A stretch of 64,000 bases of DNA from Schmidtea nova (lineage: Eukaryota). How positions within the stretch are numbered: the stretch's first letter is position 1; each line of letters starts with the position of its first letter. Location of the stretch: contig CM097883.1 in NCBI GenBank assembly GCA_044892505.1, positions 38,502,001-38,566,000 on the forward strand. Reading direction: 5' to 3'. The notes below the pieces were generated by a model. That model saw nothing but the letters and a program-made list of their open reading frames with translations, did not search any database and was not told the DNA's origin. A program made the position numbers and the translations under genes. This document shows, one piece after another, positions 28,101-47,156 of this stretch.

Positions 28101-31100
28101 AGATACCAGCCATACGAGACATTCGTCATACAAGACTTGGAAAGTGATCGCGAAAATGGGAAAAGCGATGTTTAAACGAGGAGAAATAGGAGATTTGAAA
28201 ATCAAAGTGAAATTACCAAACGAGGACACAAAAGAAATTGAAGTAATCGCGGATTGCACAATAGAAGAATTAGTTGATGTTATCAATGAGACTTTATTAC
28301 AACGGGAAAAAGAAGACGAATTAGAAGACGATATCATCATAAAATATAATGAACACGTACTAGGGGATCATGATGAGAGACGATTATATAAAATCGGTAT
28401 ATGGGATAATTACCAAACAATTCACGTTATCAGAATGGATGATACGTCAAGAGAAACACCAAAAGACGAAAAAAGGAGACAAGAACGTCGAAGAGAAGTG
28501 ATGTACAAACTAAGACAAATAATAGAAATTTATCGAAGATGGCAGATACAGCCAGAAGGGGAAAATGTATTAGGAGAATTAAACTTCAACGAACGCCGAT
28601 TAACACCAGTAGAGAAACACTGGGATGTTAAAGAGAAATGCTGGAAAGCAAAAGGAGGTATATATGAAGAAGAATTTAGACCAGAAATGGAAGATAAATA
28701 TGAACCAGAAATCAGAAGAGTTTGTATGGTGACAAGAAAAGTCATGCCAACAGATTTGGATGGACCAGAAACCGCAGCAATATGGTTAGAAACGCAAAGA
28801 CGAAAAGCTGACGAACTTATTGAATTACTAAGAGGAAATGTACAAGGTAAAAGGCGAACGATCAAAGGATTAGCCGAATTCTTTGTAGCAGGCGGCGAAG
28901 ATATAATTAGTTTACGAAAAGTAGCAAAGGCAGTAACAGAATATAAACGAGTTAACGAGTGGTGCCCAGAACAATTAGACAATGTAATCAAGAAATGGAG
29001 AAACCAGGAAAACTCCCAAGAACCACCACAGAAAATACATTTAAGGATAATATATCCAGATCGAGAAAAAGAAGAACTTTGGGTAAGATTAACTGAAAAG
29101 ATTCGGGATGTTAAAAAGAGATTAAAATATGAACCACCATTTCATCTACAACATCAAGGACGATCACTAGAAAACGATATGGAAATTTGGATAACGCCAG
29201 CACAGTTAGAACTGGCAAATACGCTAACAGTAGACGCAATAGCAGGTCAACCATTAAAACTTAAAGAGAAAAGAGTAAGAGAAAGTGAAGATACTCAGAA
29301 TCTAAAGAAAACGATGCAGATAACGCCAGGAACAAGCGCAAGGCAGTACGAAACAACATCAATTAAAATCCAAGAGAGAACTCGACCACAACCATACGAT
29401 ACAGAAGAAATCCTAACAGACAGTGATGACATGCTAGAAGAATTAGCAAAATTGACAAAAGAAAAAGGCAATAATATTTTCGAAAGAGTACAAGAGTTAC
29501 CCACAACGTCACAAGCAATCAATACCCAAGATGAAGTTGAGCAAGAAATAGAAATAGAAGAAGTGAACGAAATCTCTGAAGAAGAAGCAAGAGGAGCAAA
29601 TACAGAAAACGAACGATTTACACAAGAAATGGAAAAATGGTGGGAACAGAGAAATAATGAACCAAGAGATGTTACAGAAGAAACTGGACGAGAAACCAGA
29701 TTAATTGAAACAGGTACAACAATGGATAGACGACCTAGAGGTAGACCAAAGACAGATCCAGCCAACGTAATCAACAAAACAAAAGAAGAAAGGAGACAAG
29801 AGAAATGGGAATTATGTTTAAAGAAACTCAACAAAATAGCAGAAGCAAAAGACCAGGAAATAACGCAAAAATGTCAAGGCGAAGGATGGATATCAAAAAC
29901 ACTAATGGAAATACTGGCGATAATTGATCCAGAATTGAAAAAATGGTGGAGAATAAACGAAATAAGCGACAAGGCTAAAGCATTACATAGCGCAATCGCA
30001 CCAATCTTACCCGAACTGATAAAAGAGAAGACAAAATCAAGCCATTTAGATTGGCAAGGGACCACAACGTTGATAAAGAGGTTAACTGAAGATGCAGAAA
30101 ACGATAATAAATATGTGATAGCAATTGCGTATACAATTTATAACTTATTAACATTGAGTAGAGGTAATCCAAAATCTATGGCAATAGAGAAACATATCAA
30201 AAATACGGCAAGCATCATAGCAAAAGAAATAGAACCATACGTCATCAGTAAAGGAGGATGGGAAACATTTGTTAAAACGAATCAAAGAAACAGTCAAGCA
30301 AAGAATATGAAAAAGAAATTTGAAGAAATTTTAGGAGAATTAGAAAAAGAAAAGTCAGGAACAGGAAGTGGAAAATCTTCACTAAACCTGAATTCAATCA
30401 TAATGATGATATTAATATGGCTAATTAGCGTTGAAGGAGCAACGGCGTTCGAAGTATTTGATTGCGACCAGATGGCATTAGGAGAAAAATATTCATTAAG
30501 AGGAACCGAACAATGCAAAGATGCAACTCCAACAGAATTAAAAGTATTACATAAAGAACAAATATACCACATATATCAGGAAGCCGACTTAATAAAGACA
30601 ACAGTTAATGAATGTAAAATATATAAAACAAGATTTGCTTTTTATTGTGGACATCGCCACTACTCTGCAATCGTAATGCCAGGAACGGAAAGAGAAGCGA
30701 TAATGTTACAAGGAGAAGATTGCAATAAATTGTTCAAACATGGAGAAGTCGAAACAAGAGATCGAATAAAGATAAGAGGAAAAGCTGGAGTAATACTACA
30801 ACAAACATATTATGTAGCAGGAGCTATCACAGGAGGAGAAGGTTACTGTCAAGGAGCAACATACCCAATATTTGGAGTACCAGCAACTAACATGGTAGTA
30901 ATCGACACATATACGGTAGAATTAAAAGCGTATGAAGCATATTTTGACCCAGCAACAGGAGAAATGAAGACGTTATCAATGTGCAAAATTGAAGCCAGTA
31001 CTTGTCAAACCGGTATGTCAACTTTAACATACAGAGCAAAAGCAAATGAATGCCAATTACAATTATTAAAGGAAGCAGAGTTCGACGAGGTACAAGGAAA

Positions 31101-34100
31101 AATCTTTCAGGAAGAAGATGATGATGAAGTAGCAAGAGGAAAACGTCTACAGGAGACAGTAAAAGGAGAGAAACCGTTCACAACTAAAGTACAAGAAAAA
31201 GAGGTGAGGATGAGAGAGACGCCAACAGTATTGGTTACATCAAACGCAAATATAGGAATGAGGTTTGTAAAAGGAAAACCGGCATTAAAATGTGGTGTTT
31301 CTATGTTAGAAACAAATTATCCAGGTATTTATGTATCAAGACAAGCAGCACCAAATGCAAAACCCAAGATAGACACTACAGACATCAAATTGCACGTATA
31401 TTTAAATAACAAATTGGATTTTTTATTTCATAAAGGTCAAGCATCAATGGAGAAAATATACTACGATCTCATTAACAACGATTGTATATTGAACAGAGAA
31501 ATATTAAAGACGAAATTAGCGGTAGCAATCACAAACCCGGATAGTGCTATGCCATTATTACCACTTAACGAAGGTCATTTTGGAAGAGTAGTTGGAGAAG
31601 TTATGTATGTATATATATGCCAAAAGACACAAGCAAACCTAGCAACAACGACCAGAATACGACAAGGACAATGTACCAACGAATTAGAAATTGAATATAA
31701 AGGGAAAATAAGATATGTACAACCAGTGACAAGAATCATTAACCCAGTTAGTTTTGAACCAAACCCTTTCAATTGCAGTAATGCATACGGACCATTATAT
31801 CAGAAACCAGACGGGAATTGGGTCATGTTTCCGTCAAGATCAGAAGTACAACCACCTAGAGAATTTGAATTGATGCAACTTTCAAAAGGACGAAAATTTT
31901 CCAATATAGATGTAATTAACGGAGGAATTTACAGTGCAAAAGATCTTGAAGCAGCACGACAAAATATATTATTTCCAGCTAGAAGAGAAGCAGTATTATC
32001 TAGCATTGTAACGATAACAGGAGGAACAAGTTATCAAGGAGGACCAAATTATGAATTATTACTGTCACCAGCACACTTTAGGAAAGCAACAGAGAATATG
32101 ATGAAAGCAATGTGGGGACGATTTTTAATTTTCGGACAAATGATGGCCGGAATATTAGGTGTAATTTTAATCATACAAATAATACGAGTGATAATCACAC
32201 AAATGCTAGCATGTTTCGATATTTATAAAAGAGAAAAGAAAGTTAATTGGAAATTAATAGCAGGATTTTTACCATTTTTAGCAAAAACGATGGTGTTACA
32301 TGGTCACTCCAAAGATATTCATAGAATAAAAAGATTATTAAAAATACTGGCAAAAATGAAAGGAACAGATGAAGACGTGGGAAGAAAATTCAAAAAGATA
32401 ATGACAGATGAACAAGCGAGATTACAATTAAAAAGCGAAAGAAAAGGATTATGGGAAAGAATAAGAGGAGATAAAACTCAAGATGATTCCAGTGATGACG
32501 ATGATAACAATGACGACTGTGAAGGAGGGCAAAGGTATAGAAACCAAGCACCGCAATATAGCGACAAGAATCCAACAGAAGCATGGAAATGTCACGCACC
32601 TCCACCAACAATGTACCAAGAACCATTACAGGTATCAGGACACAGAGCAATGCAAATGATGCCAATGACAACTTTATATCCAATTATACCAGAAGATTAT
32701 AAACTTAGACGATGTAGAAGTATGGATCCGCAAGACGATTCACTCACAATTGCAGTCATGTCATCAAATACAGGACCAGTATTAACTACAACCATAGAAA
32801 TAAATGGAAAAGAAATAGAAGCGATGATAGATACAGGAGCAAACATTTCGGCGATAGATATCAAATGGATACCGCAAGAACAAAGACAAGAAATTGAAAG
32901 AACAAATGTTCATGTAATAGCATGTAGTAAAGAGATTGTTGAAGTTGCAGGAAGATGGTGGGTGAAAATACGACACCAAAATATAGAAATCGAAACGTAT
33001 GTAGCCGTAATACCAGCTTTAAGCGTACCATGTATAATCGGAACAGATTTAATGCCAACACTACTTAAAGAAATAATCATCGATCTTGGAACAATGAGAT
33101 TAAAAGACAGAACAGGGAAAATATGTGCTATGGAAGCAAAAGTAATAAGCTCAAAACAAATGATAATACCAGCCAGAAAAGAGAAAATATGTTATGTCAA
33201 AATAGACCCTACAATAGAAGGAGACATGGTTTTCGAGCCAAGTAAGAGATTCGAGAAAAGGAAATCATTGCAAATGGCAAGAGGCTTAGTTAATATAAAC
33301 AACAACGGAGAAATCCCAGTAAATGTAATAAATTTTGATGAAGAAGATAAGATAATTTATGAAAACGAAAGATTAGGCAAACTAACTCCTATGATAGACA
33401 TCGAAATACCAACAAAAAGGGGAGAAAAAGCGGAAGAACCAATATGGAATATTGACAGTAAATTGTTAAATGAGGATCAAAAGAACCAATTAGAGAAACT
33501 TCTAACAGAATATAAAGATATATTCGCAGCATCTGATTTAGACCTAGGAACATGCGATGTTACAGTACACACGATACCACTATTAGACGAAACACCGATA
33601 GCATTGAGACCCTACAAATTGGCAGAAGCACAGAAAGCCGTAGCAGAGGCAGAAGTGCAGAAAATGTTAGACGCAGAAGTTATTGAACCCAGTTGTTCAC
33701 CGTGGCAATTTCCAGTGGTAATGGTGAAGAAGAAAGATGGAACGCAAAGATTTTGTATCGATTATAGAAGATTAAATGCAGTAACGAAACGAGATACATA
33801 CCCATTACCAGACATTAACGAGATGTTGTTGACATTACAAGGAGCAGCCTATTTCACATCATTAGATTTAAAAAGCGGTTACTGGCAAATAAAAGTAAAG
33901 GAGGAAGATAAGGAGAAAACTGCTTTTACTATTGGAAGAGACTTATATCAGTTCAGGAAAATGCCATTCGGATTAACCAATGCACCAGCATCATTTCAGC
34001 GATGTATGAATTTTGTGACGCATGGAATAAAACAGTGCATGGTTTACATTGATGACCTATTAATTTATTCAAGCACATTCGAACAACATATACAAGATAT

Positions 34101-37100
34101 GAGAGACGTATTCGTTAGACTCAGAGAATGGAAATTAAAACTAAAACCATCAAAATGCGATTGGGCAAAAGAAAAAGTAACTTTCTTAGGACACATAGTG
34201 TCGGCACAAGGGAAAGAACCCGATCCCAGAAATATTGAAAAGGTTAAAGAATGTCCAGCACCAAAAACGATAACACAAATACAAGAATTCCTTGGTTTAT
34301 GTGGATATTACAGGAAATTTATAAAGGATTATGCAGGAATTGCAAAACCCATGCAAGAATTAGTAAAGAAAGATGTAACGTTTATATGGGGACAAGAACA
34401 ACAAACAGCGTTTAAAACGCTAAGAGATAAATTGATAACCGCACCAATATTAGTTCATCCAGACTTCAAGAAACCATTTTTACTAGCAACAGACGCAAGT
34501 GGATACGCTGCAGGAGCAGTACTAGGACAATATGATGATGAAGGGAAAGAAAGAGTAATCGGATATTACAGTAGAACGTTTAAAAAGCATGAGAAGAATT
34601 ATTCAGTAACAGAAAGAGAAGCATTAGCAATAATATTGGCTATAAAACACTTCAAATATTTATTATGGGGACATGTAATATGTATAACTACAGACCATCA
34701 ACCGCTTGTATGGTTAGGACAGCATAAAGAAACATCCAGTAGACTAATGAGATGGGCAATGCAACTGCAAGAGTACTCACCAGATATAAAATTTAAATCA
34801 GGAAGAGCAAATTCAAACGCAGACTGTATGTCAAGATTAACTTTCCCAGAATTAATAGACCCAGAGGTACAAAGAATATGCGTATTGATAGCGGAAGATT
34901 TAGATTTCAGCGAATTAAAGAAGGACCAACAAGAAGACAAAGAATTAGGACTAATAATAGAATTTATGAAATCACGGAATTTAGACGTATTCAAAGATAA
35001 TGAGGAATTAACAGAACATGTGAAAAAATATCAGCATCGGTATATAATAGAGAAAGGATGGCTGTTAATACAAGATGGAGAAAAGAGGTTAATGTGCTTA
35101 CCAGAAAATAGACGAAAGGAAATAATAACGCAATATCACGATGGAAAACTCGGAGGACATATGTCAAGCCAGAAAACAATCAATCGTATGAGACAGAAAT
35201 ACCATTGGCCGACAATGGAAGAAGATGTTAAAGAATGGATAAAAAACTGTCTAACATGTGCAACTAGAAAAGATAGCGGTAAGAAATGGAAAAATCCTCT
35301 AAAACCTATGCCAATACCAGCAGAACCAATGACAACCATCGCGATGGATGTAATAGGACCGTTACCAGAAAGCTTGAACGGAAACCAATACATACTAGTA
35401 ATAACAGATTATTTAACGAAATTTCCAGAAGCATTCGCAATGGAAGACCAAAAAGCAAAAACAGTAGCAAAAATCTTGGTAGAAGAGATATGTTGTCGAT
35501 ACGGAACGCCTAAACAAATATTGACAGACCAAGGAACGAATTTCATGAGCGAAGTATTCGACGAAGTAACAAATTATTTTAGAATAGCGAAATTAAGAAC
35601 GTCACCCTATCACCCACAAACTAATGGACAAACAGAACGATTTAACGGCACATTGATTAGAATGCTATCGAATTACGTATGTAAACATCAGACTGATTGG
35701 GATGAGTATATAAAACTATGTCTAATGGCTTATAGAATGTCGATACATGCAGCCACAAAATTAAGCCCATTCAAACTAATGTATGGAAGAGAATGTAACA
35801 TACCTATTGATTTAGAATACCAACCACCATTGTCTCAATACATGGAAGAAGACGACTATGTTACCAAGTTCAAAGAGAGAATGCAGGAAATATGGAAGAC
35901 AGCGGAACTAAATATAAAATTTTACCAAGAAAGTTATAAAGATTTGCACGACCAAAAGAAAAACGTGAAGACAAACGATTTAAAACCAGGAGACTGGGTA
36001 ATGATTGAAACCCCAGAAATAATACCAGGAACAGTAAAGAAATTACAAAGACCGGGAAAAGGCCCGTATGAAGTGATATACAGAAACGAAGATAATGTCA
36101 AAGTAAAACTTGTAAATCGACCATTAGTACGACCAATATACGTGAATACATGTAGATGCAAGAAAGTGCCAAAAACAATAACAATGATACCGGAAGAGAG
36201 AATCATGACGAGATCACAAACCATCAGAATAAATATGCTCAGAGCGGAAGAAATTAACACAACTAGTCAAGTAGACAGTGAGAAAATAGATGTTGACAAA
36301 GAGATCGTACGAAAAGCCAAAGAAATAAACGAAAGATGGGAAATCAGACAAGAAAAAGACGTATTATGGGATATACGACAAATAATCAGTGATTACGCAC
36401 GAGGATGCCCAACCAAACCAATTATAATAGAATTACTAAAGAAAATACCAGAGATACTCGTATTACAAGATACAGGAGGTGCAACTGCACTACACAATGC
36501 CATAAGTTGGGGTAAAACGGAAAAGGTAAAAGAATTCTTGAAAATAGCAAAAGAAACGAATCAAAATCTAGACATTGTAAATCGAGAATTAGAAACGCCA
36601 ATGATGACAGCAACCCTAAGCTTAGCAGATAAAGAAATAGTAGATATGCTGATTAACGCAGAATTCAACTGGACAGCTCGAGATAGAAGAGGAAACACAG
36701 TTTTAAACCATGCAATAATGAGTGAAAATCAAATGATACTAAAACATATAACAACCAACCTCACATGGGAAATCGAAGAATTAATCAAAGGAGAAATTAT
36801 GAAAGAAGCGATTCGGAAGGGAAACACTAAAACAATATGGAAACTAATACAATGGAAATGGCCGAATAATAAAACATGGGTATTAGATATAAACAAAGAA
36901 TTTAGCGAAGGACAGAATGCACTATTGAGATACTTGTTAGAGTTTACGTGCGATCAGAGAACGATGTTAGCACTAATAAATAGAGGAAAAATAAATATTA
37001 GTAAAAACGAAGAGGAATATAAACTAGAAGTTGAAAAGAAAGCTTTATTCAGGAAAATTTGGGTATGGTGTCAAAAACAAATACGCAAAGACATAAGCTA

Positions 37101-40100
37101 CAAAAATATAAATGATTTCCAAGAAAAGTATAAGATAATAATAAAGGAATACAAGAAGCTAGTGGAGATATTAAACGATCCAGAAAAATTTAATCAAGCG
37201 ATAAATCAGAAAGAAGAAGAAAGTAAAAGGATACTCACACCATTGTTCAACGCGAAGATAGATTACCAAGAAAGATTGGATGCAATACACCAAAAAGCAA
37301 AGGAACTATTACCAGAATTCAAAAATACTAAATACGCCTTGGAAATACTTGGCGCGATAGTAGAGAAAGTACACGCGTACGCGAAAGGAATATATAATGG
37401 AAACGATATAATAATTATAAAAAGAGAAATGCCAGTTGCGTTCTTATTAACTAAAGAAAGAATAATGCCGATTCATAGAGCATTGAGAGCAGGAAAAGAC
37501 GGTAAAGTAATCGAAATCGCAAGAGTAATGCATCAATGTGGATGTGATATGAATATGATAGACGAAAAAGGAGACACCCTCATGGTATACGCAGCAAGAG
37601 CAAAAACAAAAGTCAAAGTATTAGAAGAATTATATAAAGCAGGCGCAGGATTAATCGGAAAAACTGTCAAAGACAACTCAATATTAGACGTGACATTATT
37701 AGGTCCAAACTGGGAAATGTTGAATTTCATTAAAACGATAACAAACCAGGAAGAGATAGACTATTTAACAGAAACCGTAAAAGGACCAAGCGTATTGACA
37801 ATGATGCAAAACATCAAATTGACAGAAGAAGTATTAAACTGGAAAATACCAAATACAAACAAACCAGCATTTAAAGTTAACAAGTTTATGGAGAATAATC
37901 GAAATTGGTGTATCCAAAGCGCACTAATAACTTATATATGGCCCGAAATTGTAGAAATTTTCATGAGAAGAGAAGATCTGAGATTTACAAACAAGCCCAA
38001 AGAAACGGAAAAGATGGTCAAATGGAAAGAATTGATGAAAACACACCTTCAAAGTTGGATAAAAGCCAAGAAAGAAATTATACAGTATCAATTAGACAAC
38101 AAAAAGATACCCGAAGATATAGAATTCCAAGAATTTGAAGCAAGTAACTTAACATCATTATATTATGCAAAACTAATAGAAACCAGTAATGTCGAGGACG
38201 ACATTTTTAACGAGCCAGGGAGAGATAATAATACTGACAATGATGATGACGATGAAGAAAACAATGACGACGAGAGAAATAAAGACGATGATGATGATGA
38301 AAACAGTCACGGAAATCCAGATAACCACGAACAAACCAATAAAGAAGACGAGAACCAAGAGAGAAATACAAAGAAACAAGAATCCAAAGAACCAAGAGAA
38401 GACAACCCTAAAAATAATCATGAAAAGAAAGGAACAAGTTACAGAAGGAATCCATTATTCAGACCAGAAGTATTAATGTTCGCAATAATCATAACACTTA
38501 TGGGACAATGTGAAGCAACGAAACAAGAGATATCAGTAGAAATGGAAGTACCAATACAAAAAGCATCAACACAGATAATGAATTCAAAGGATATTGAACA
38601 AGTATGTTGGGTCAAAGAGAACGAAATTCTCGGAGATAACAACCTATTACGATGTATAATACCAAACCCCGAGCGAAAAACTATAATAATAGACGAAATG
38701 GACATGGAAACATGGTACAGAATATGTACTATCAGAAAACCCAAGGACGAAAAATCACACAAAACAGTTACATGCCAAGTATACAAGACACCCAAAGTTC
38801 GATATGAGTTCGCCAATGGAATAGACCTTCCAGGACCATTTTATTTTAAAATAACAAGAGAACCAGCATCAAGAAAAGTCTTACAACAACTAAGAACCAA
38901 GATAACAACACCAAGTATAAGGAATACAACGGATAAACCAGAACCAAAAAGACGAACGAAACAAACCACAAGAGTAATCTATAATTCCAAGTTGTTATGT
39001 ATAGCACTTATTATGACAATACTGAAGCGATTGGAAGAAGGGATAGAAATGGATACAATGACATTAATAGACATGGAAGAGACACGAATGACAAATCAAA
39101 AATGTTGGGTTAGAAACGATGAAAAATTAGAATTAAAGGAATCAAGAGAAATTCAAAAATTGGAAGCGAGTAAAACGAACAAAGTAATCAAGATAATAAA
39201 GATAAAAACAGACAGAATTCATAAACTATGTTTATTGGAAAAAGAGAGAAACAAGAAAGGAATAACCAATTGTAAAACATTCCAAGCAGGGAAAATAATA
39301 ACGTTTGCAAGAAAAATGGGGAAAAGAAACAAACAAAATTTCCAGAAATTAACCATAACGTTAGAAATAACGGGAATAGAACAAAATGTAAACGGAGTAT
39401 GCTGGAGAAAATACGAGAAAGAAACGAATAAACATAAATCATCACAATGTCAAACAATCAGAGGAACAACTGCAGTGCAAATAAAAAGCTTAGAAAGAAA
39501 TCAAACGTATGAAATATGCCTAGTAAAGGAAAATGATCAAATAACGAAAGAAGATTTAGAATGCAGAATATACAAAGCACCGAACAGAGTAAAAACCATT
39601 AAAGCAATACGAAAGAATAAAAGACAACAAAAACCGAAGCATACCACTACCGAAAGTCAAACAGAACCAGAGAGGAAAACCTCAGCAACACTTATACTTT
39701 GGAAACTAGATGACAAAACAGTAGAAATATGTTGGACAATGATCAAGAAATATGAAGAAAGACAACCACAACAATGCGAAAAGATGAACAAAGAAGAGGA
39801 GATCAGAATTCAGAACCTACAATTGGACAAACAATACGAAATATGCGCAATAGAAAAGGCAGATAAATTTGGAAACCAGCAAGAGAAATGTGGAAACTAC
39901 TATACACCGACAAATACAACGATCAAAGGAAGAATCAAGAAACTAACTTTCGGAGAATTGAATCAAACAACGAAACAAATGGAAAACGAGGAAACAATAA
40001 TAGATTCTTATGCACAATGGAAACCAGAAAAAGTAATCCAGGAAGTCAAAAGGAAACAACAAGAACGACAACAATTGGAACTCAAATTGAAAGGACAATA

Positions 40101-40407
40101 TGGACCAATGATCAACCAAAGCAAATTCACCCAAATTAATATTAACAAGCAAAGAAGAGAACTAATTGGAGTAGGAATACTGGCAGTATGCGTACCAGTA
40201 ATAATAATACTATCAATAATATGGTTATGGGACATAATAAAAAAGAAACCAACCAGACAATGGCCAGATATAAAGATTATGAATTGTAAAATCAAGATAC
40301 CAGAAGAAGTGAAAAAAGAATTCCAAAGAAGAACCAAAGGCAAAGAATTTTGGAAGCGAATAGAAGACGAGGAGCGACACGATGAAAAAGCAGTGATGAT
40401 AGTATAG
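25153..40407 (+). CDS. Giant gag-accessory-env-pol-accessory polyprotein, 5,084 aa uninterrupted (track start is TTG; first ATG 25519)
   Basis: A 15.2-kb stop-free frame containing all domains listed below. Confidence 0.95.
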   Translation: MRSRAVSATIEKVDNSQRNKSKQRATSATKKTNPKGSKSRRVIVEKSKVENSKFSKTNESETEESASETYDNYNNTEASDNESINTEEVEAEIDNNSNETNNEHTSETRGNESKTTQDSGIEMNEHKEEIKDKFTGEPFNGDASKLETFLKEFGIFVEMCKWKPETIRSRIQLYLKDSALDLYLEAKNSDDQLDSWEKIKNFFQQTFGINKVLNEAFTEFSMRKQKVNESNAAYASELKKLAKLAFNQNSPMSPELMAAIFVGGLRRPDIRAQVGCQGCKTIDEALEIANRFELHMIGSEGRIYLAMDTTQNEQAIKINNHIPNSQQLNRPPPQRRNEGNKIQNYGNQNNYSTQGQTKQCQTCGKLGHWQQECFANLNCKKCGRKGHAENRCYQRSCYNCGQSGHMAMNCQQQNNQQRNWSNNGNRQNYTNQQSNGNRQNFENQQSNYNQNKSTTKEIHLLQEVQRLTELINNTPRGNQQTNQQQMNMMRKVESENERLNRESQARHAQEWARIQREDEQKRQERERQPLRINMMRAANQTRDNKEDIEPETNQIKPNLVDEENQKEIIQENEEVIKQKRMLVVMPNDHVFQFEYDEKEEVGVLINKVNKTIPGTTKLPREAILQTEDDAAIKLKPTDIWKDLGVPRNKMKVTVIQEIEENNDEEKSKPVTKVKSRALKIFEERIKQRKAMEIEKRRGQIEESENSDKKEEIPPKNVPDKVEQTAHINMLRNLTREFSDVESDSDVSSLAGDMLKEPEKEDNKIEVAKMPENVQIKEDEIQKLLDNALEVIYNEEFIDKKRYRKFIRAVFRTNYKERLQSREIEILSGYVVKLLDEPLHEYIILIEINECSPRIWIKSPCTNEIYRWVEDRLGSSYKNKFIYSGNELVRRATHLVETGIWPGEITTLSICDNKKEENLQEIAKEANMCFEMRIKPQLVERKERILRENLNSLIEQIIQQIDKNREELTKTEYEKLKQCIENIRDTSHTRHSSYKTWKVIAKMGKAMFKRGEIGDLKIKVKLPNEDTKEIEVIADCTIEELVDVINETLLQREKEDELEDDIIIKYNEHVLGDHDERRLYKIGIWDNYQTIHVIRMDDTSRETPKDEKRRQERRREVMYKLRQIIEIYRRWQIQPEGENVLGELNFNERRLTPVEKHWDVKEKCWKAKGGIYEEEFRPEMEDKYEPEIRRVCMVTRKVMPTDLDGPETAAIWLETQRRKADELIELLRGNVQGKRRTIKGLAEFFVAGGEDIISLRKVAKAVTEYKRVNEWCPEQLDNVIKKWRNQENSQEPPQKIHLRIIYPDREKEELWVRLTEKIRDVKKRLKYEPPFHLQHQGRSLENDMEIWITPAQLELANTLTVDAIAGQPLKLKEKRVRESEDTQNLKKTMQITPGTSARQYETTSIKIQERTRPQPYDTEEILTDSDDMLEELAKLTKEKGNNIFERVQELPTTSQAINTQDEVEQEIEIEEVNEISEEEARGANTENERFTQEMEKWWEQRNNEPRDVTEETGRETRLIETGTTMDRRPRGRPKTDPANVINKTKEERRQEKWELCLKKLNKIAEAKDQEITQKCQGEGWISKTLMEILAIIDPELKKWWRINEISDKAKALHSAIAPILPELIKEKTKSSHLDWQGTTTLIKRLTEDAENDNKYVIAIAYTIYNLLTLSRGNPKSMAIEKHIKNTASIIAKEIEPYVISKGGWETFVKTNQRNSQAKNMKKKFEEILGELEKEKSGTGSGKSSLNLNSIIMMILIWLISVEGATAFEVFDCDQMALGEKYSLRGTEQCKDATPTELKVLHKEQIYHIYQEADLIKTTVNECKIYKTRFAFYCGHRHYSAIVMPGTEREAIMLQGEDCNKLFKHGEVETRDRIKIRGKAGVILQQTYYVAGAITGGEGYCQGATYPIFGVPATNMVVIDTYTVELKAYEAYFDPATGEMKTLSMCKIEASTCQTGMSTLTYRAKANECQLQLLKEAEFDEVQGKIFQEEDDDEVARGKRLQETVKGEKPFTTKVQEKEVRMRETPTVLVTSNANIGMRFVKGKPALKCGVSMLETNYPGIYVSRQAAPNAKPKIDTTDIKLHVYLNNKLDFLFHKGQASMEKIYYDLINNDCILNREILKTKLAVAITNPDSAMPLLPLNEGHFGRVVGEVMYVYICQKTQANLATTTRIRQGQCTNELEIEYKGKIRYVQPVTRIINPVSFEPNPFNCSNAYGPLYQKPDGNWVMFPSRSEVQPPREFELMQLSKGRKFSNIDVINGGIYSAKDLEAARQNILFPARREAVLSSIVTITGGTSYQGGPNYELLLSPAHFRKATENMMKAMWGRFLIFGQMMAGILGVILIIQIIRVIITQMLACFDIYKREKKVNWKLIAGFLPFLAKTMVLHGHSKDIHRIKRLLKILAKMKGTDEDVGRKFKKIMTDEQARLQLKSERKGLWERIRGDKTQDDSSDDDDNNDDCEGGQRYRNQAPQYSDKNPTEAWKCHAPPPTMYQEPLQVSGHRAMQMMPMTTLYPIIPEDYKLRRCRSMDPQDDSLTIAVMSSNTGPVLTTTIEINGKEIEAMIDTGANISAIDIKWIPQEQRQEIERTNVHVIACSKEIVEVAGRWWVKIRHQNIEIETYVAVIPALSVPCIIGTDLMPTLLKEIIIDLGTMRLKDRTGKICAMEAKVISSKQMIIPARKEKICYVKIDPTIEGDMVFEPSKRFEKRKSLQMARGLVNINNNGEIPVNVINFDEEDKIIYENERLGKLTPMIDIEIPTKRGEKAEEPIWNIDSKLLNEDQKNQLEKLLTEYKDIFAASDLDLGTCDVTVHTIPLLDETPIALRPYKLAEAQKAVAEAEVQKMLDAEVIEPSCSPWQFPVVMVKKKDGTQRFCIDYRRLNAVTKRDTYPLPDINEMLLTLQGAAYFTSLDLKSGYWQIKVKEEDKEKTAFTIGRDLYQFRKMPFGLTNAPASFQRCMNFVTHGIKQCMVYIDDLLIYSSTFEQHIQDMRDVFVRLREWKLKLKPSKCDWAKEKVTFLGHIVSAQGKEPDPRNIEKVKECPAPKTITQIQEFLGLCGYYRKFIKDYAGIAKPMQELVKKDVTFIWGQEQQTAFKTLRDKLITAPILVHPDFKKPFLLATDASGYAAGAVLGQYDDEGKERVIGYYSRTFKKHEKNYSVTEREALAIILAIKHFKYLLWGHVICITTDHQPLVWLGQHKETSSRLMRWAMQLQEYSPDIKFKSGRANSNADCMSRLTFPELIDPEVQRICVLIAEDLDFSELKKDQQEDKELGLIIEFMKSRNLDVFKDNEELTEHVKKYQHRYIIEKGWLLIQDGEKRLMCLPENRRKEIITQYHDGKLGGHMSSQKTINRMRQKYHWPTMEEDVKEWIKNCLTCATRKDSGKKWKNPLKPMPIPAEPMTTIAMDVIGPLPESLNGNQYILVITDYLTKFPEAFAMEDQKAKTVAKILVEEICCRYGTPKQILTDQGTNFMSEVFDEVTNYFRIAKLRTSPYHPQTNGQTERFNGTLIRMLSNYVCKHQTDWDEYIKLCLMAYRMSIHAATKLSPFKLMYGRECNIPIDLEYQPPLSQYMEEDDYVTKFKERMQEIWKTAELNIKFYQESYKDLHDQKKNVKTNDLKPGDWVMIETPEIIPGTVKKLQRPGKGPYEVIYRNEDNVKVKLVNRPLVRPIYVNTCRCKKVPKTITMIPEERIMTRSQTIRINMLRAEEINTTSQVDSEKIDVDKEIVRKAKEINERWEIRQEKDVLWDIRQIISDYARGCPTKPIIIELLKKIPEILVLQDTGGATALHNAISWGKTEKVKEFLKIAKETNQNLDIVNRELETPMMTATLSLADKEIVDMLINAEFNWTARDRRGNTVLNHAIMSENQMILKHITTNLTWEIEELIKGEIMKEAIRKGNTKTIWKLIQWKWPNNKTWVLDINKEFSEGQNALLRYLLEFTCDQRTMLALINRGKINISKNEEEYKLEVEKKALFRKIWVWCQKQIRKDISYKNINDFQEKYKIIIKEYKKLVEILNDPEKFNQAINQKEEESKRILTPLFNAKIDYQERLDAIHQKAKELLPEFKNTKYALEILGAIVEKVHAYAKGIYNGNDIIIIKREMPVAFLLTKERIMPIHRALRAGKDGKVIEIARVMHQCGCDMNMIDEKGDTLMVYAARAKTKVKVLEELYKAGAGLIGKTVKDNSILDVTLLGPNWEMLNFIKTITNQEEIDYLTETVKGPSVLTMMQNIKLTEEVLNWKIPNTNKPAFKVNKFMENNRNWCIQSALITYIWPEIVEIFMRREDLRFTNKPKETEKMVKWKELMKTHLQSWIKAKKEIIQYQLDNKKIPEDIEFQEFEASNLTSLYYAKLIETSNVEDDIFNEPGRDNNTDNDDDDEENNDDERNKDDDDDENSHGNPDNHEQTNKEDENQERNTKKQESKEPREDNPKNNHEKKGTSYRRNPLFRPEVLMFAIIITLMGQCEATKQEISVEMEVPIQKASTQIMNSKDIEQVCWVKENEILGDNNLLRCIIPNPERKTIIIDEMDMETWYRICTIRKPKDEKSHKTVTCQVYKTPKVRYEFANGIDLPGPFYFKITREPASRKVLQQLRTKITTPSIRNTTDKPEPKRRTKQTTRVIYNSKLLCIALIMTILKRLEEGIEMDTMTLIDMEETRMTNQKCWVRNDEKLELKESREIQKLEASKTNKVIKIIKIKTDRIHKLCLLEKERNKKGITNCKTFQAGKIITFARKMGKRNKQNFQKLTITLEITGIEQNVNGVCWRKYEKETNKHKSSQCQTIRGTTAVQIKSLERNQTYEICLVKENDQITKEDLECRIYKAPNRVKTIKAIRKNKRQQKPKHTTTESQTEPERKTSATLILWKLDDKTVEICWTMIKKYEERQPQQCEKMNKEEEIRIQNLQLDKQYEICAIEKADKFGNQQEKCGNYYTPTNTTIKGRIKKLTFGELNQTTKQMENEETIIDSYAQWKPEKVIQEVKRKQQERQQLELKLKGQYGPMINQSKFTQININKQRRELIGVGILAVCVPVIIILSIIWLWDIIKKKPTRQWPDIKIMNCKIKIPEEVKKEFQRRTKGKEFWKRIEDEERHDEKAVMIV
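25552..26382 (+). other. Gag: capsid domain plus three CCHC zinc knuckles (26230-26382)
   Basis: F.G....L..FL..F / MHR-like QKVNESNAAYASELKKLA / FVGGL; knuckles CQTCGKLGHWQQEC, CKKCGRKGHAENRC, CYNCGQSGHMAMNC. Confidence 0.93.
26887..29241 (+). other. Three to four ubiquitin-like domains (26887-27120, 27670-27885 weaker, 28192-28434, 29032-29241)
   Basis: e.g. LKIKVKLPNEDTKEIEVIADCTIEELVDVI..IIIKYNEHVL..RLYKIGIWDNYQTIHVIR follows the ubiquitin beta-grasp pattern. None ends in di-Gly. Confidence 0.6.
29728..29751 (+). other. AT-hook motif (RRPRGRPK)
   Basis: Canonical PRGRP core flanked by basic residues. Confidence 0.6.
29788..30279 (+). other. Bcl-2-like helical domain
   Basis: IEPYVISKGGWETFVK closely parallels BH2 of Bcl-xL (LEPWIQENGGWDTFVE), preceded by a ~150-aa helical region. 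BH1 (NWGR) is not recognisable. Confidence 0.65.
30388..32304 (+). other. Env-like fusion glycoprotein, chuvirus/Monjiviricetes G-like (class III-like): signal 30388-30447, ectodomain from 30448, TM 32110-32217
   Basis: IIMMILIWLISVEGATA/FEVFDC, FYCGHRHYS, GEVMYVYICQ, CTNELEI..YVQPVTRII, GGIYSAKDLEAARQNILFP and MWGRFLIFG..AGILGVILII follow the motif and cysteine order I recognise from chuviral glycoproteins. Confidence 0.8.
32779..33060 (+). other. Aspartic protease
   Basis: IEAMIDTGANISAI (D at 32830) and CIIGTDL. Confidence 0.93.
33646..34836 (+). other. Reverse transcriptase (YIDD 34045-34056) and RNase H (34477-34836)
   Basis: RFCIDYRRLN, LDLKSGYWQI, MPFGLTNAPASFQR, YIDD; RNase H TDASG, EREALA, TDHQPL, NADCMSR. 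Confidence 0.97.
35089..36170 (+). other. Integrase (HHCC, DDE, GPY)
   Basis: H..GGH..CLTC; D35347, D35527, E35635 (D-35-E spacing); GPYEV at 36061. Confidence 0.96.
36463..37698 (+). other. Two clusters of ankyrin repeats (36463-36750 and 37459-37698)
   Basis: DTGGATALHNAISWGK, RDRRGNTVLNHAI, MPIHRALRAGK, IDEKGDTLMVYAA..VLEELYKAGA. Confidence 0.85.
38470..40230 (+). other. C-terminal type-I membrane module: signal-like peptide 38470-38517, four Cys-containing FN3-like repeats, TM 40162-40230
   Basis: VLMFAIIITLMGQCEA; repeats CW..C..I..L...Y.IC...C (about 38593, 39094, 39388, 39721); LIGVGILAVCVPVIIILSIIWLW followed by a basic tail. Confidence 0.65.
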
Positions 40408-40529: not shown

Positions 40530-40865
40530 ATGAATGTACAAGGAGAAACAACCGAAATGACTTTGACTATGCGATGGAAAGCACAATGTGAAACGTTAGT
40601 TCGATCAATTAATGCACTACAGAATCAATTGGTAGAGAAGCAAAATATATTAGCAGATTGTTACAACAATATCTTTGAGCAGTTACATAAAATAGAAGAG
40701 CAACAGAGAATAATAACAGAACTAACCAGAGAGAATCAAAGATTGAGACAAACGATGGAAATAAATCAACTAACAAGAAGAGATGAATCAGAAGGTCAAT
40801 GGCTAGATTGGGTAATAAATGGATTAGAGAATGGTATAGAACCAGATTCAACGAGCGAACCATAG
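40530..40865 (+). CDS. Accessory small coiled-coil protein (111 aa)
   Basis: ATG preceded by TATTTTAG|AAA; heptad-like composition. Confidence 0.6.
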   Translation: MNVQGETTEMTLTMRWKAQCETLVRSINALQNQLVEKQNILADCYNNIFEQLHKIEEQQRIITELTRENQRLRQTMEINQLTRRDESEGQWLDWVINGLENGIEPDSTSEP

Positions 40866-40961
40866 TCAAATTGTAGCGGAAAATTGTATATATGTAAAAA
40901 TAAAACTCTAGAAAAATCAAAAACAAAGAACAAATCAATGTATGTATATATTATTGTAGAA

Positions 40962-42296
40962 ATGGATAAAGAGGAACGAGCAGTCGAGATTTTGAGAGCA
41001 GCAAACAGAAATTGGAATAAGAGATTTGTATGTGGATATTGTAATAATTTATTACGGAAACCAAAGCAAACCGCCTGTGGATGTAGATTATGCACTAGAT
41101 GTGTACAAATGTTAGAGTTAAAAGGAATAACAGAATGTTCAGAATGTAAAGAAGGACAAATAGTATTAGACGAAACGAGACCAGATAGAGCAACTCAGAG
41201 AGAAATCATGAGCATATTAATTGAATGTATAAATCCACCGTGCATATGGCAAGGACAAATCAGCGAAATTGAAAATCATATAGAAAATTGTGAAGAAAAG
41301 AGAAGCGAATGTGAAAAGTGTAAAGAAACGATAATTTTAAAAGACAAAGAGAAACACAGAGATGAATGCAAAGAGGAAGAAATCGCATGTGAATATTGCG
41401 AAATTCGAGAAACAAGGAGAAAAATTGAAGAGGAGCACATCAATATAAAAGAAGAGAAAATATGCGAACAGTATGTAGGAGTGTTCCCAAACAAATGTGA
41501 AATTACCGAAGAAGTGAAATTACGAGAACATTGGGAAAAGTGTACAGAAATACCAAGAGAATGTCCTTACAACAGATATGGATGCAAAGAAAAGAAGTCT
41601 CAACAAACGATGAAACAACATTTAGAAACAGAAGCAATCAATCATATTGAAATGACAGACAGAACAATTCAGAAATTAGAAAAGGAAGTAGAATCTCATA
41701 AAATAATGATGAACCTATTATTAGAAACGAGAGAACAGGTTGAATTAACCCGAGGAAGGATGGAAAAGAAAATAATATATAACAAGTTAATATATAACAA
41801 GTTAATACAAGAAATTGATGAGAAAAAAGATTTACCAATAGCACCTTATGTATGGAAATTAACGGATTTCCGAAATAAATTGGAAGATGCACGAAGCTGC
41901 AAGAAAACTGCGGTACTAAGCCCACCATTTTACTTATGGAAAAACGGGGCTAAAGTGAGATTGAAAGTATATCCAAACGGAGATGGGAAAAGTAATGGAA
42001 AACACGTATCGATATTTTTTGCGTTTTGCAAAGGAGAATATGACGATTTAATCGATTGGCCGATAGGAGTAGGAGTAATGATAAAAATCAGGGGTTTAAA
42101 CGAAACCATAGAAAAGAGATTCACGACAGAAAAAGGAGCAGTTACCAGTAACAGACCAACAGAAGAATGTGGATTAGCAAGTGGAGAGCCACACTTTGTA
42201 TTACAAAGCAAGATATGGGGATTATTGTATGAGGACACCTTATACATAGAAATGGAAAGGAACGAGAAGGCAGATAGAAAAGGATGGTTGGCGTAG
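40962..42296 (+). CDS. Captured full-length TRAF-like protein (RING, TRAF Zn fingers, coiled coil, MATH); 444 aa from ATG 40962
   Basis: CGYC..KPKQTACGCRLCTRC..CSEC; CINPPCIWQG..ENHIENC; ECPYNRYGC; YVWKLTDF..LSPPFY..VYPNGDG..HVSIFF..KGEYDDLIDWP. Confidence 0.92.
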   Translation: MDKEERAVEILRAANRNWNKRFVCGYCNNLLRKPKQTACGCRLCTRCVQMLELKGITECSECKEGQIVLDETRPDRATQREIMSILIECINPPCIWQGQISEIENHIENCEEKRSECEKCKETIILKDKEKHRDECKEEEIACEYCEIRETRRKIEEEHINIKEEKICEQYVGVFPNKCEITEEVKLREHWEKCTEIPRECPYNRYGCKEKKSQQTMKQHLETEAINHIEMTDRTIQKLEKEVESHKIMMNLLLETREQVELTRGRMEKKIIYNKLIYNKLIQEIDEKKDLPIAPYVWKLTDFRNKLEDARSCKKTAVLSPPFYLWKNGAKVRLKVYPNGDGKSNGKHVSIFFAFCKGEYDDLIDWPIGVGVMIKIRGLNETIEKRFTTEKGAVTSNRPTEECGLASGEPHFVLQSKIWGLLYEDTLYIEMERNEKADRKGWLA

Positions 42297-42401: not shown

Positions 42402-43505
42402 ATGGGAAACGTCGAAATCAGTTTACAAGAAGTAACCGAACATCAAGATGAAGTTATTTGTGAGCATTTAGAACAAATTAAAAGTTGGATCCACGCATAT
42501 TACCACAAACAAAAAGAAGTAGAAAGACAAGCTGAACAAATAAAAGAAGACAAAAGATTAAAGCGATTAAGTCAAGATAAAATAGACGAATTATATGAAT
42601 TATTGGAGAAACAAAAAGAATATTATAAAAAGATGATGAAAGATCGACGAGAAGAAAGAGAGCGAGAACGAACAGAAATGGAACGGAAAATGTACTCCAT
42701 TACCGAGCAAGCAAGATATTGGAAAAAAGAAGCGAAAGAATCTTATACGAAAGCAAGAGAAATAATCGAAAGAACGGCGTACAGCGATGATTGGAAATTA
42801 TTTGAAGAAATCGATAAATTAAAAGAGGAATTAGAACAGAAAACCTATCAGGAAATATCGAACAAAAAATGGAATAAAAAGAGACAACAATTCATCAGAG
42901 AGCAAGCAGGAAAAATTAAACAACTTATGCACCAGATTGAAAGGTCGGAAAGAGAATTATATTTCAGTAAACAACAATCAGATGCAAACCTCAGAGCAGG
43001 GATGCAGAAAGAGGAAGATATGAAGCGCGATATTAATGGTTATCAAGGAGTAATCACTCAAAAGAAGATAGAGTTAAAGAAAACTAAAGAAAGATTAGAA
43101 GAAGCAAAACAAAGCTATGAAGAAAATTTATTAAAATTAGAAGAAGCAAAACAAAGCTATGAGGAAAATTTATTAAATCTAACCAAAGAAAATGAAGAGT
43201 GGAAACAAAAATTGACACAAAAATTAACACCACCAAAAGAGACAGATATCACCAAAGCAGTAATAAAAATGATGGAAGAGGAAGAGAAAAACAATAAAAT
43301 AACAGAATTAGAAAAACAGATCGAAGCGTTAACAGAACAATCAAATTATTTAGAATATCTGTTAGACGAAGAAATTCAATTATCACACTTCTATCGAGAC
43401 GAAGTAACAATGTGGAGAAACACGATAGTGTGGTTACCACCCCCTACAAACCAAGTGGAACCTCAAGATGAAGGTTTTCACGAACCCAACGAGTCGTTAG
43501 TTTAA
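42402..43505 (+). CDS. Accessory long coiled-coil protein (367 aa) with a tandem 14-aa duplication LEEAKQSYEENLLK (42 bp, 43095 and 43137)
   Basis: Long E/K/Q-rich open frame; ATG preceded by AATTATAG|AAA. Confidence 0.75.
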   Translation: MGNVEISLQEVTEHQDEVICEHLEQIKSWIHAYYHKQKEVERQAEQIKEDKRLKRLSQDKIDELYELLEKQKEYYKKMMKDRREERERERTEMERKMYSITEQARYWKKEAKESYTKAREIIERTAYSDDWKLFEEIDKLKEELEQKTYQEISNKKWNKKRQQFIREQAGKIKQLMHQIERSERELYFSKQQSDANLRAGMQKEEDMKRDINGYQGVITQKKIELKKTKERLEEAKQSYEENLLKLEEAKQSYEENLLNLTKENEEWKQKLTQKLTPPKETDITKAVIKMMEEEEKNNKITELEKQIEALTEQSNYLEYLLDEEIQLSHFYRDEVTMWRNTIVWLPPPTNQVEPQDEGFHEPNESLV

Positions 43506-43578
43506 AGAAGCGAAAAATTCGTTGTAAATATCTGTAAAATAACAATGTCAAACTGTATTGACAAATTTGTAAAGTGAA

Positions 43579-44143
43579 ATGAAGAAGCTCGCAATACTGA
43601 TAATCCTAAACGTAATCGAGATCACCCAACAAAGAGAAGACCGTCCGATATCAAAAGAAAACCTACAAGTCTTACCCGATAAAATCTATAAAGAAATAGA
43701 TAATCTATTTAAAAGAAACAGCTAAAGAAATATCTCAAATTCAATTGTCAACAGCACCTAACCCAGTATCAACGCAACAAACCCTGTGCAAAATCAATAA
43801 CAAATTAGAGAAGATTCGAAAAACCCTAAAAGAAAGTAAAGAAACTATAAAGAATTTACATCGAGCAGAAATTCAATACCAAGAAAGATGGATCGTTGCG
43901 ATTATAATCGTATTAACAATTAGTACAACAACCTGCGCAATTACCATTCTCATCGCAGTATATAGAATAAAGATCCTAAAACAAAAACAATCGATCATCA
44001 ATCAAACAACAGCATACGATGACAATGCCCGAAGACAAATGAGAAATCAGTTCAAAAGAATACGAACCCAATACGAGTTACCAGCAATTCCACAGAACCA
44101 GTCCAATCCAGTGCGAGTTATGAACTATTTGTATAAACCATAA
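43579..44143 (+). CDS. Small type-I membrane protein, split by a 1-nt frameshift in the A4 run at 43711-43714
   Basis: ATG 43579 gives MKKLAILIILNVIEITQQ..LFK. Removing one A joins it to ETAKEISQIQL and the track ORF 43745-44143, which has TM WIVAIIIVLTISTTTCAITILIAVY. Confidence 0.55.
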
Positions 44144-44337: not shown

Positions 44338-47156
44338 TGTTGGATCCACCATTTGGTCCACATTTAATATAAAAAATAATAATAACAAGAAATAAATAAG
44401 AATAAATTAAATTAATATAATTACGAGAAGTTTCAGAAAGGATCAATTAAAAAGATAATAAAGAATATTAATTTTCTATAAAAATTTAGAAGAAAGTAAA
44501 TAGGAAATGTAAAAGTGTTAAAGAAACAATGATATTTAATTGTATTTAAGGCAAAATAAAGAAATAATAAAGAAAAAGAATTACAGAATATTAAAAAGCA
44601 AAAACAACAAATTATTAGTAATTTAAAGCAAATCAATCGATTTGATTTTTAATGTAATTTATTTTTTGTGCTGATCGGATGATCAGCTTCAAGCTGATTG
44701 GTCAGTGATCTGATCTGATCAGTATATATACTGATCCAGATTCAGATATTTTTAATGCATAAATTTTTTTCAGTGACAAAAATTTTCTTTGTATTTGGTG
44801 AGAAGCTAATAGGTATGAGTATTTTTGTTTTATTGAATTTATAAATTTTATGATTATCTGTCATTGACCATTGTAGTTAATTGTTAATAAAATATTTTAA
44901 GATATATGATTTTTAAATTTTTGTCGAGTATAGAACTAAGCCAAGCTTCTTCCACTGTGAAATCAGTGGAAGGAGATGACTCTATTTATATATATGATTT
45001 ATCTTTTATTGAGCTTCTTCCATCGTGTAAGCGGTGGAAGGAGGCAACAGTATCAGTTTATATTAACAACTAACAAGTATAATTTTAGAAGTAATTATTG
45101 GGTCGAGCTTCTTCCACTGTGAAATCAGTGGAAGGAGGCAAATATATATTATCTATATACCGTATTTATAGTATAAAATTACGTATGATTTAAGGGGCTC
45201 CGTTCACCGTGCAATCGGGAACATGGAGGCATACTGTGCCGAGTAGAAACGACTGCTCCGTACAGTTAGGCCGTCCGACCGGTGTGAAGCGCCGAGACGA
45301 GGGTAGGAATTTTATTTTTGATTTCTAACCTTATTTTTCACTGGATAGTATAGCCAGTTGAAGTTTTATTTTATAATCGATTTAAATTTTTTGAGTTTAT
45401 AGTTAAGTTGAGTTTTGATTTTAGTTTGAGACAGATATAGCTGTGATTTTATTAATCTGATTTTATATTGGAATTCTCCGAATGTTAATCTATATTTTTT
45501 GATTGTCACATCTGGGGTTTGTGGGCATAGAGCGGCAGATACACGTTTAAGAATTTGTACAAAATATAATTTTAATAACAACATAAAAATCGATAACTCT
45601 AATAACGTAGTGATCTACTACGCAAGTAACATAGCAGCAATAGGCTATAGGTTCAAACATTCCACATAAATAATTAAATATAATTGCTTATCCTGAACCC
45701 TGTACATAGGGCAGTGGATCTTAGTTTATTTTAATAATTTTCTTATCCTGACTGCTGTATATAGCACAGGCGTAACTGAATAAAATGCATTATGAAATAA
45801 ATGTATCTGATCGCTGTACATAGCGACAGTGTTGAAAGCGTAATAGGTAAATCATTTTCTTTTCCTAAATTAACAATTACCAATTGTCAAAAGCATGAGA
45901 ATCGTTCAGATCAAGACGGTCAATTTCATGTGAATAAACCAATTTTGAATTTTAGAAAAATGTCAGCCAACACAGCAACCAATCAAGCCGAATTAGACAA
46001 AGCATGGAGGATAATTCGCAGCCTCGAAAAGGAAATGCTGCGAAAATCAGAGAGAATAAAAGAAGCCGATGGCATAATCTCCAACCTAAAGAAAAGCTGG
46101 TTCAGTCCAGAACAAATGAAAACACAAATTACAAAAACTCAACGCTCACAGCGAGCTAACAGCGAATTGCAAATGGAATTAGACGCGACGAAGATGGAAT
46201 TAAAGAAATGCCTAAAATCTGTAACGGCATCGTATCTAACTCAGGAGCTCAGCCAGCTCATTCGACCAATCACTTACCAGCATTGGGCTGACGAAAAGGC
46301 GGGATGTACAAAGGGAACAAACACCGAGGAACCATCTCAGGTTCAAGCAACAACAATAGCCAGTACACCAAATAACTCGATAAATCCAGAAGTCAAGAAG
46401 AAAAGGAAGAGCAAGATGGGAGCACGTCAGCGTCGCTGGAAGAAACAAGTTCTTCAGCAATTGGCTCAACAATCCAAAGAAATTCCAGAAATTGATTTGA
46501 CCATGAATTTTGCAATATCAGATGAAGACATTACTAAATACTTTGAATAGGAATTTTGTGATTTAGCTGTTTTCGCGTATTAAATAATTTTTGTTTTGTA
46601 TTTATTTTATTGTAAAGTATAGAAAATAATGTGATTTATTAAAAATTTTAAAATAATTTAAAGAAAAATATAGATTAAATTAAACTATACATTAGAATCA
46701 ACAATAGGATTAACCTAAATCTAATAAACAATAGAAACATTAAAGAGATAATATATTGTAATTGATTAAAGATTACTTGTTGACATTGTAAAGAAGGGGG
46801 CTGAAAGAAAAGTTGAGAGTTGAAAGATATTGTAAAGAAAGGGGGCTAAAGAAACATTGAAATGAAAGATAATGGATGCGGATAGATTAAAGTTAAAGCG
46901 TAAGTCCTTCTATCGGCAGCGAGACGAACCCGTGAACATAAATGGGGAGTAGTTTTAGCAATAGAGCTCACCTGCCCATCATTGTTCAAACACCTTGCAC
47001 ATTTCCAACTCGATTATTACAGGGAAATGATCGAGGGTGCTCGTGTGATATGTAAGCATTTTATGTGAGGTTTTGGATGGAGGAATCCCTAGAGCGTTTA
47101 AAAATAATTATTAGTTTAATTTACTGTTTTTGTTTTAACCCAATCCGAAACCAACA
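44338..47156 (+). repeat. 3' LTR (2,819 bp)
   Basis: Same termini and length as the 5' LTR. Two substitutions seen by eye: A21127/G46002 and A22069/G46944. Confidence 0.97.
45960..46550 (+). CDS. 3' LTR copy of the LTR-encoded ORF
   Basis: Identical to the 5' copy except T>A (KTW/KAW). Confidence 0.6.
   Translation: MSANTATNQAELDKAWRIIRSLEKEMLRKSERIKEADGIISNLKKSWFSPEQMKTQITKTQRSQRANSELQMELDATKMELKKCLKSVTASYLTQELSQLIRPITYQHWADEKAGCTKGTNTEEPSQVQATTIASTPNNSINPEVKKKRKSKMGARQRRWKKQVLQQLAQQSKEIPEIDLTMNFAISDEDITKYFE

Follow-up and report, generated by a model that had tools for sequence, protein, structure and literature searches.

Architecture of the element

The window analysed here, a 64,000-nucleotide stretch of Schmidtea nova DNA (contig CM097883.1, positions 38,502,001 to 38,566,000 of the forward strand), contains a Burro-type giant LTR retroelement of 27,694 bp (27.7 kb) at window positions 19463-47156, whose LTRs and ORFs all lie on the + strand. 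The 5' LTR (19463..22281) is 2,819 bp long, has TG...CA termini and shows two mismatches to the 3' LTR (44338..47156), and a 4-bp target-site duplication is found at both ends of the element. Because the LTRs differ at 2 of 2,819 positions, the insertion is young. Each LTR holds an internal ORF of 249 codons (20926..21675, second copy 45801-46550), and the LTRs of lineages B and C contain homologues of it (see “Copies and lineages”). About 9 nt past the LTR end lies a primer-binding-site-like stretch (22291-22308), with three repeats in 71-nt units, that resembles the complement of the 3' end of tRNA-Pro.

An upstream accessory ORF of 153 aa (22822..23283) encodes an IAP-type C-terminal RING (zf-C3HC4_3, E 2e-11), its best PDB matches being the RINGs of XIAP and cIAP (E 7e-10); no BIR domain was found in the element ORFs scanned with Pfam. 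The polyprotein follows as a single frame of 5,115 codons (25060..40407, first Met 25519), in the order gag, CCHC, ubiquitin-like, weak Bcl-2-like, Monjiviricetes-type fusion glycoprotein, protease, weak dUTPase, RT, RNase H, integrase, ankyrin and a C-terminal hydrophobic segment. The env thus sits in frame between gag and protease (Monjiviricetes_fusion, E 9.5e-72). The ubiquitin-like segments and the dUTPase-like and Bcl-2-like matches are all weak (E 0.007, 0.07 and 0.1, respectively) and occur in the order expected for Burro. Short motifs resembling protease cleavage sites recur in the polyprotein between 26524 and 36229.

Downstream of the polyprotein, accessory ORF1 (40530..40865; 111 aa, a 112-codon ORF, coiled-coil-like) precedes a TRAF gene and is its upstream neighbour in all six element lineages. 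Beyond the TRAF lie ORF3 (42402..43505), encoding 367 aa rich in coiled coil and with no Pfam family, and ORF4 (43575..44143), with a hydrophobic segment. ORF4 has 189 codons in most sister copies and is frameshifted in the window copy by an indel relative to 37 of 37 copies compared.

The TRAF gene

TRAFs belong to cell-survival and immune signalling. As the preliminary description of this DNA had claimed, a full-length TRAF stands downstream of pol: 555 nt past the polyprotein stop (40407) begins one stop-free 444-codon frame (40962..42296; ATG 40962, TAG 42296) with RING, zinc fingers, coiled coil and MATH, giving 444 aa here and 451 in most sister copies. The RING (41031..41147; C24-C62) has eight Cys ligands and is followed by a linker helix with a basic residue; TRAF-type zinc fingers occupy residues 89-223 (41226..41630), a coiled coil the helix 225-285 (41634..41816), and the MATH/TRAF-C domain 41847..42260. 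Pfam recovers MATH_2 (E 1.5e-20) and zf-TRAF (E 2.6e-6), and the RING falls under Pfam cut-offs (TRAF3_RING, E 0.012) while aligning to RING-ZF1 structures of TRAF5, TRAF6 and TRAF2 with E 2e-13 to 1e-11. The His of C3HC4 is a Cys in each of the six element lineages, a substitution also found in host TRAFs. Each lineage retains the eight Cys of the RING, a basic residue following the third ligand pair, and an Arg or Lys in the linker helix. In an AlphaFold model built from 58 sequences (mean pLDDT 91), a 61-residue helix (225-285) precedes the MATH sandwich, and the top Foldseek matches of this model are TRAF3, TRAF1 and TRAF2. The protein therefore has the features of the TRAF family, namely a C-terminal MATH/TRAF-C domain, a coiled coil (from the model) and an N-terminal RING with zinc fingers in the His-to-Cys variant.

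These domains had been described as all intact, and all are indeed present, but the window copy has lost 7 codons at the coiled-coil/MATH junction, at the end of the coiled coil, relative to two sister copies, and one of its zinc-ligand positions, occupied by Cys in five other lineages and the host gene, has a different residue. The damage consists of these two small lesions, private to this copy. Frameshifts flagged in eight TRAF copies were dismissed as alignment artefacts at the window's own indel, the frames being whole. The A-rich codon style said to be shared with the polyprotein is borne out by the frequency of A at third positions, which is 0.52 in the TRAF and 0.54 in the polyprotein, against 0.30-0.35 in seven host TRAF frames.

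Copies and lineages

Exact 20-mer searches found 92 matches for the window's own lineage (A), 90 for A2, 119 for B and 12 for D, with none for the reversed controls, as well as eight for lineage C, in which MATH lies inside the polyprotein. Larger candidate numbers from a first look (636, 670, 2,419 and 2,761) were discarded as copy counts, since exact patterns gave 92 and 119. An element-type MATH motif common to four lineages, which may miss decayed copies, matches 1,709 loci (control 0). The preliminary description had raised multi-copy TRAFs as a possibility and had named a TRAF confined to this copy as an outcome that would refute it; these counts show the TRAF to be multi-copy. To characterize the motif loci, we sampled 20 of the first 100 listed among the 1,709, choosing sequence types that had not come up before. 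Every one is an element TRAF flanked by its cassette neighbours: 15 belong to lineage E and four to F, and one is decayed. E-type loci make up about 71 of the first 100 matches listed.

All 91 other lineage A copies were fetched and inspected. A whole TRAF frame of 440-460 aa is present in 63 of them, ORF1 lies beside the TRAF in 90 and ORF3 in 83, and 37 of the first 39 continue into the 3' LTR; A2, B and D carry the same cassette. Most copies retain the TRAF while missing RT-RNaseH-integrase: integrase stands at the expected place in only 14 of the 91, and no more than 16 loci match the window RT at 95% or above. One in-frame deletion of the dUTPase-like domain, RT, RNase H and integrase, equivalent to window 33170-36173, is shared by 54 of the 91 copies and leaves the polyprotein frame open in most. 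Its joint lies at short homology, which rules out a splice product. On the TRAF tree, deleted (pol-less) lineage A copies are interspersed with pol-bearing ones, a pattern suggestive of frequent recombination. In lineage E, no RT match was obtained in any stretch (L152-L171), and the protease abuts the ankyrin in the 14 stretches with polyprotein matches.

Lineage E also has about 2.3 kb extra between the TRAF and ORF3, and one of its copies (L158) shows a weak RING-like match at ~8041-8178 in element orientation. A deletion copy of lineage B (L099, G000:C2:167487527-167497526) has the polyprotein fused in frame to the TRAF MATH in a 1,304-codon frame; such a fusion is a possible route to the Burro1 layout.

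Origin of the element TRAFs and their host relatives

The TRAFs of the six element lineages are 35-78% identical and form one clade (100/98; 100/99 in a four-lineage tree), and a quick tree agrees on their monophyly. Placed in phylogeny with host TRAFs, as the preliminary description had advised, this clade groups with triclad host TRAFs (93/93 and 91/91), in trees built without a mixture model and flagged for long branches and A-rich composition. Grouping with non-flatworm TRAF3/5 is weakly rejected (p-AU 0.04), and a tree that joins the element TRAFs to the TRAF-2A/B group is compatible with the data without being demonstrated (p-AU 0.34). In a MATH tree, lineage C joins the downstream TRAFs weakly (86/61). 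A word-based homologue search with the window TRAF or an element-only alignment returned nothing at E <= 0.001, and it missed vertebrate TRAF3 too. Because six lineages form one clade in the same cassette, a single ancient capture, probably of a flatworm host TRAF, is the likely source of the gene. The pattern supports the long residence in the element proposed earlier. Capture from an mRNA, which had been read from the lack of introns, does not follow: 7 of the 27 host TRAF loci fetched likewise hold RING to MATH in a single exon, so an intronless ORF cannot show it, and capture at the DNA level or from pre-mRNA would give the same intronless look.

The genome has two separate sources of TRAFs, the ~1,700 element-borne loci and a host tandem array. 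The latter consists of two-exon TRAFs at ~405-455 Mb of G000:C2 (L048-L052, L087-L097), which form a clade of their own (100/97). Host-like loci, assigned by position and frame length and mostly in the tandem array, account for 73 of the best 150 MATH matches, a lower bound, and one host locus is 70% identical to D. japonica TRAF-2A. Of the 22 host rows in the MATH tree, none places a host-context gene within the element clade. The preliminary description had warned that element copies could inflate host TRAF counts. In DNA they do far outnumber host loci, but there is also a separate host expansion in tandem. Since the element copies comprise only about six sequence types, the inflation would be smaller in transcriptome counts than in counts from the genome.

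The TRAF gene expansion of planarians is called unresolved in passages of three papers (PMC8807557, PMC6109357, PMC7586133), which draw no link to Burro elements. Knock-down of host TRAF-2A/B is described as increasing cell death, the gene being needed for cell survival (PMC7586133). Planarian TBK1 is reported to limit the expression of transgenes or foreign DNA and to induce TRAFs, which are also induced by infection and wounding (PMC13563047). The same source describes only divergent RHD genes in S. mediterranea, where clear NF-kB homologues are hard to find, which makes NF-kB a doubtful read-out for an element TRAF. A search for the RHD family gave no match, and its controls were silent too. 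Piwi-targeted ‘traf’ mRNAs are listed for S. mediterranea in PMC6824462; none could be linked to an element, and the closeness of the few gene ids examined suits a host array.

Selection on the TRAF

Selection was assessed on 84 lineage A rows covering at least 90% of the gene at no less than 88% identity (8 of 92 dropped), with pN/pS taken from allele counts rather than a branch model. TRAF variants private to one copy comprise 156 nonsynonymous (N) and 73 synonymous (S) changes and 16 stops (pN/pS 0.64-0.76), whereas variants found in at least four copies comprise 51 N, 64 S and no stops (pN/pS 0.24-0.28, p <= 2e-11); the two classes differ with a Fisher p of 2.6e-5. Private variants hence drift while shared ones are constrained, which places selection in the replicating lineages, before insertion, with resident copies left to decay. 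The preliminary description had also named neutral evolution among copies as an outcome that would undo its view; shared variants instead give a pN/pS of about 0.25.

Among TRAF variants shared by lineage A copies, constraint is strong in the RING (pN/pS 0.13-0.15) and zinc fingers (0.13-0.16). It is weakest in MATH, whose pN/pS of 0.50-0.58 (p 0.035-0.08) is only marginally below neutral, a weakness that fits a drifting surface and a host-adapting one alike. For variants in at least four copies, ORF1 (0.21-0.25) and ORF3 (0.17-0.21) are also constrained. Overall, TRAF constraint equals that of ORF3 and the polyprotein tail, and is lower than that of the ankyrins (p 0.006) and the integrase, which has no shared amino-acid change. 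Selection extends to copies without RT: lineage E TRAFs show 14 N and 29 S (pN/pS 0.16, p 7e-9, 14 rows), and variants exclusive to pol-less lineage A copies 14 N and 14 S (pN/pS 0.33, p 0.004).

Expression signals

All six lineages have a YAG 1-3 nt before the TRAF ATG, as do 85 of the 91 other copies of lineage A, and most other accessory ORFs are likewise preceded by one. In the window, this splice-acceptor-like YAG lies two bases before the ATG, with the putative acceptor at 40959, at the end of a TGTA-rich spacer of 96 nt (40866..40961). From its position we infer that the YAG may be used as a splice acceptor. A leader joined to the TRAF acceptor was seen in none of the 91 lineage A copies, whose listed deletion joints are of short homology or non-GT-AG. 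Four sequencing runs, apparently of DNA, contained no splice joint.

Four spacers of 95-122 nt (40408-40529, 40866-40961, 42297-42401 and 43506-43600) separate the accessory ORFs. TGTA reaches 38 per kb in the spacers vs 3.4 in the ORFs, TGTAnATA occurs five times in the spacers (never in the ORFs) and AATAAA four times; these motifs resemble 3'-end or Pumilio signals. The spacing of the accessory ORFs resembles that of an operon, and flatworm operons are described as resolved by trans-splicing (PMC12582326, in part).

A proposed role for the element TRAF

The explanation we favour, and hold to be reasonably probable, is that the whole TRAF is a selected accessory gene of Burro-type elements, derived from a single old flatworm capture, likely spliced, and acting on host TRAF signalling. 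The protein would be made from a spliced mRNA. Its coiled coil and MATH would let it form trimers, and its RING dimers, together with host TRAFs or at receptor tails. In cells that produce element RNA and particles, this would tip ubiquitin signalling in favour of survival, or against a response to foreign nucleic acid, and the TRAF would have the IAP-type RING ORF and the Bcl-2-like domain of the element as partners in this task. A bare MATH decoy is hard to square with the strong constraint seen in the RING and the zinc fingers. In vertebrates, TRAF RING heterodimers are reported to be active, and the priming of ubiquitin within TRAF dimers is ascribed to a linker Arg (PMC5702613).

The main rival to a modulator of host signalling is a ubiquitin role internal to the element, in which the TRAF is selected as a ligase or adaptor for Gag, for polyprotein turnover or for particle release, and the host is not retuned. 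The tighter constraint on RING and zinc fingers than on MATH speaks for it, as do the ubiquitin-like segments of the polyprotein (E 0.007) and the selection in RT-less copies (0.33 in pol-less copies, 0.16 in lineage E), which would suit a TRAF that works in cis or inside the producing cell. Pol-bearing and pol-less copies are mixed on the tree, however, so exchange with full copies can account for the selection seen where pol is deleted; moreover, the whole signalling architecture has been retained, including the coiled coil and MATH core motifs, and the companion cargo is apoptosis-related. We regard this role as rather unlikely.

Two further readings differ in whom, if anyone, the gene serves. 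A dispersed, domesticated pool of TRAFs kept for the host's benefit could draw on the ~1,700 loci, on the whole frames in 63 of 91 lineage A copies and on the induction of planarian TRAFs by infection and wounding (PMC13563047). It is disfavoured, and we give it little credence, because constraint marks the shared variants but not the private ones, which drift (0.64-0.76, 16 stops), so that selection precedes insertion, and because no host-context gene is nested in the element clade (22 host rows). That the TRAF is a recent neutral passenger of this copy or family might be argued from the youth of the insertion (2 of 2,819 LTR mismatches), given that an open frame alone proves nothing. Against it stand the single clade formed by six lineages (35-78% identity), the polyprotein-like codon style and purifying selection in lineages A and E. 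This reading is scarcely credible; the six-lineage clade and purifying selection refute it.

A wider and more tentative scenario, which we would not bet on, is that Burro elements are endogenous flatworm viruses with a coordinated counter-immunity module (whole TRAF, IAP-type RING protein and Bcl-2-like domain) and with processed sub-genomic RNAs for the separate ORFs, in which RT-less copies, as most of the TRAF loci, flood TRAF signalling when piRNA silencing relaxes. If so, part of the planarian ‘TRAF expansion’ and of the piwi knock-down phenotypes would be element-derived.

Relation to known systems

The closest known systems are the Burro/GYPSM1 gypsy elements of Schmidtea mediterranea and Dugesia tigrina, as described in parts of PMC6431247. 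Like the window element, these are 25-30 kb long, with LTRs of several kb and a polyprotein of ~5,000 aa that contains gag with CCHC, an in-frame env before the protease, PR-RT-RH-IN and ankyrin, the env being related to mononegavirus fusion proteins in both. Ubiquitin-like, Bcl-2-like and dUTPase-like domains are also reported for Burro (PMC6431247), the window element's matches to them being weak. RING and MATH_TRAF cargo is common to both, and MATH_TRAF cargo in Burro is already published (PMC6431247). That source places MATH_TRAF_C inside ORF1 in Burro1 and on an upstream accessory ORF in D. tigrina, whereas the window element has a whole RING-zinc finger-coiled coil-MATH gene downstream of the polyprotein; the Burro1 layout, with MATH in the polyprotein, also occurs in this genome as lineage C. 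A BIR is reported for Burro1-4 (PMC6431247) and none was found in the window element, which is thus a Burro-like relative and not Burro1.

The planarian host TRAF-2A/B group, comprising Dugesia japonica TRAF-2-like A (P0004), Dendrocoelum ‘TRAF-4’ (P0002) and host loci L040-L044, shares with the element TRAF its domain order, length, Cys-for-His RING and, here, single coding exon. It differs in its host context, ~30% identity, third-position A (0.30-0.35 vs 0.52) and separate clade. Vertebrate TRAF2/3/5 (PDB 1kzz, 1ca9, 7l3l, 3knv) have the same MATH fold and core motifs, and a RING-ZF1 with the linker-helix basic residue; at ~26% identity to them, the element TRAF has fewer zinc fingers, an altered serine-rich groove motif and Cys for the RING His. 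Viral mimics or binders of this kind include baculovirus IAP, herpesvirus vBcl-2 and the TRAF binder LMP1, and the LMP1-TRAF2 complex is among the Foldseek matches of the TRAF model. In these, as with the element TRAF, a parasite carries or engages parts of host survival signalling, but they bind or mimic other components.

A whole TRAF is not known to be encoded by any virus or, this element aside, by any retroelement. On retroelement- or virus-encoded TRAFs, the Burro review (PMC6431247, in part) was the only publication found to be on point. The literature searched yielded no report of a whole downstream TRAF (the Burro-2/3/4 maps of Grohme 2018 may already show one), none of selection on an element TRAF and none that ties such elements to the TRAF expansion of planarians. 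It is unusual for selection to preserve a complete signalling adaptor in a retroelement, including in lineages that have no reverse transcriptase of their own. The element TRAF turns the Burro review's untested idea of meddling with apoptosis and ubiquitination (PMC6431247) into a testable protein, and the presence of two TRAF sources in this genome is a practical warning for gene counts and the design of RNAi probes.

Elsewhere in the window, a transposase-like frame of 744 codons with no Pfam match (50956-53190) and a 2-kb element with 104-nt inverted repeats (56772-58862) are probably unrelated DNA transposons.
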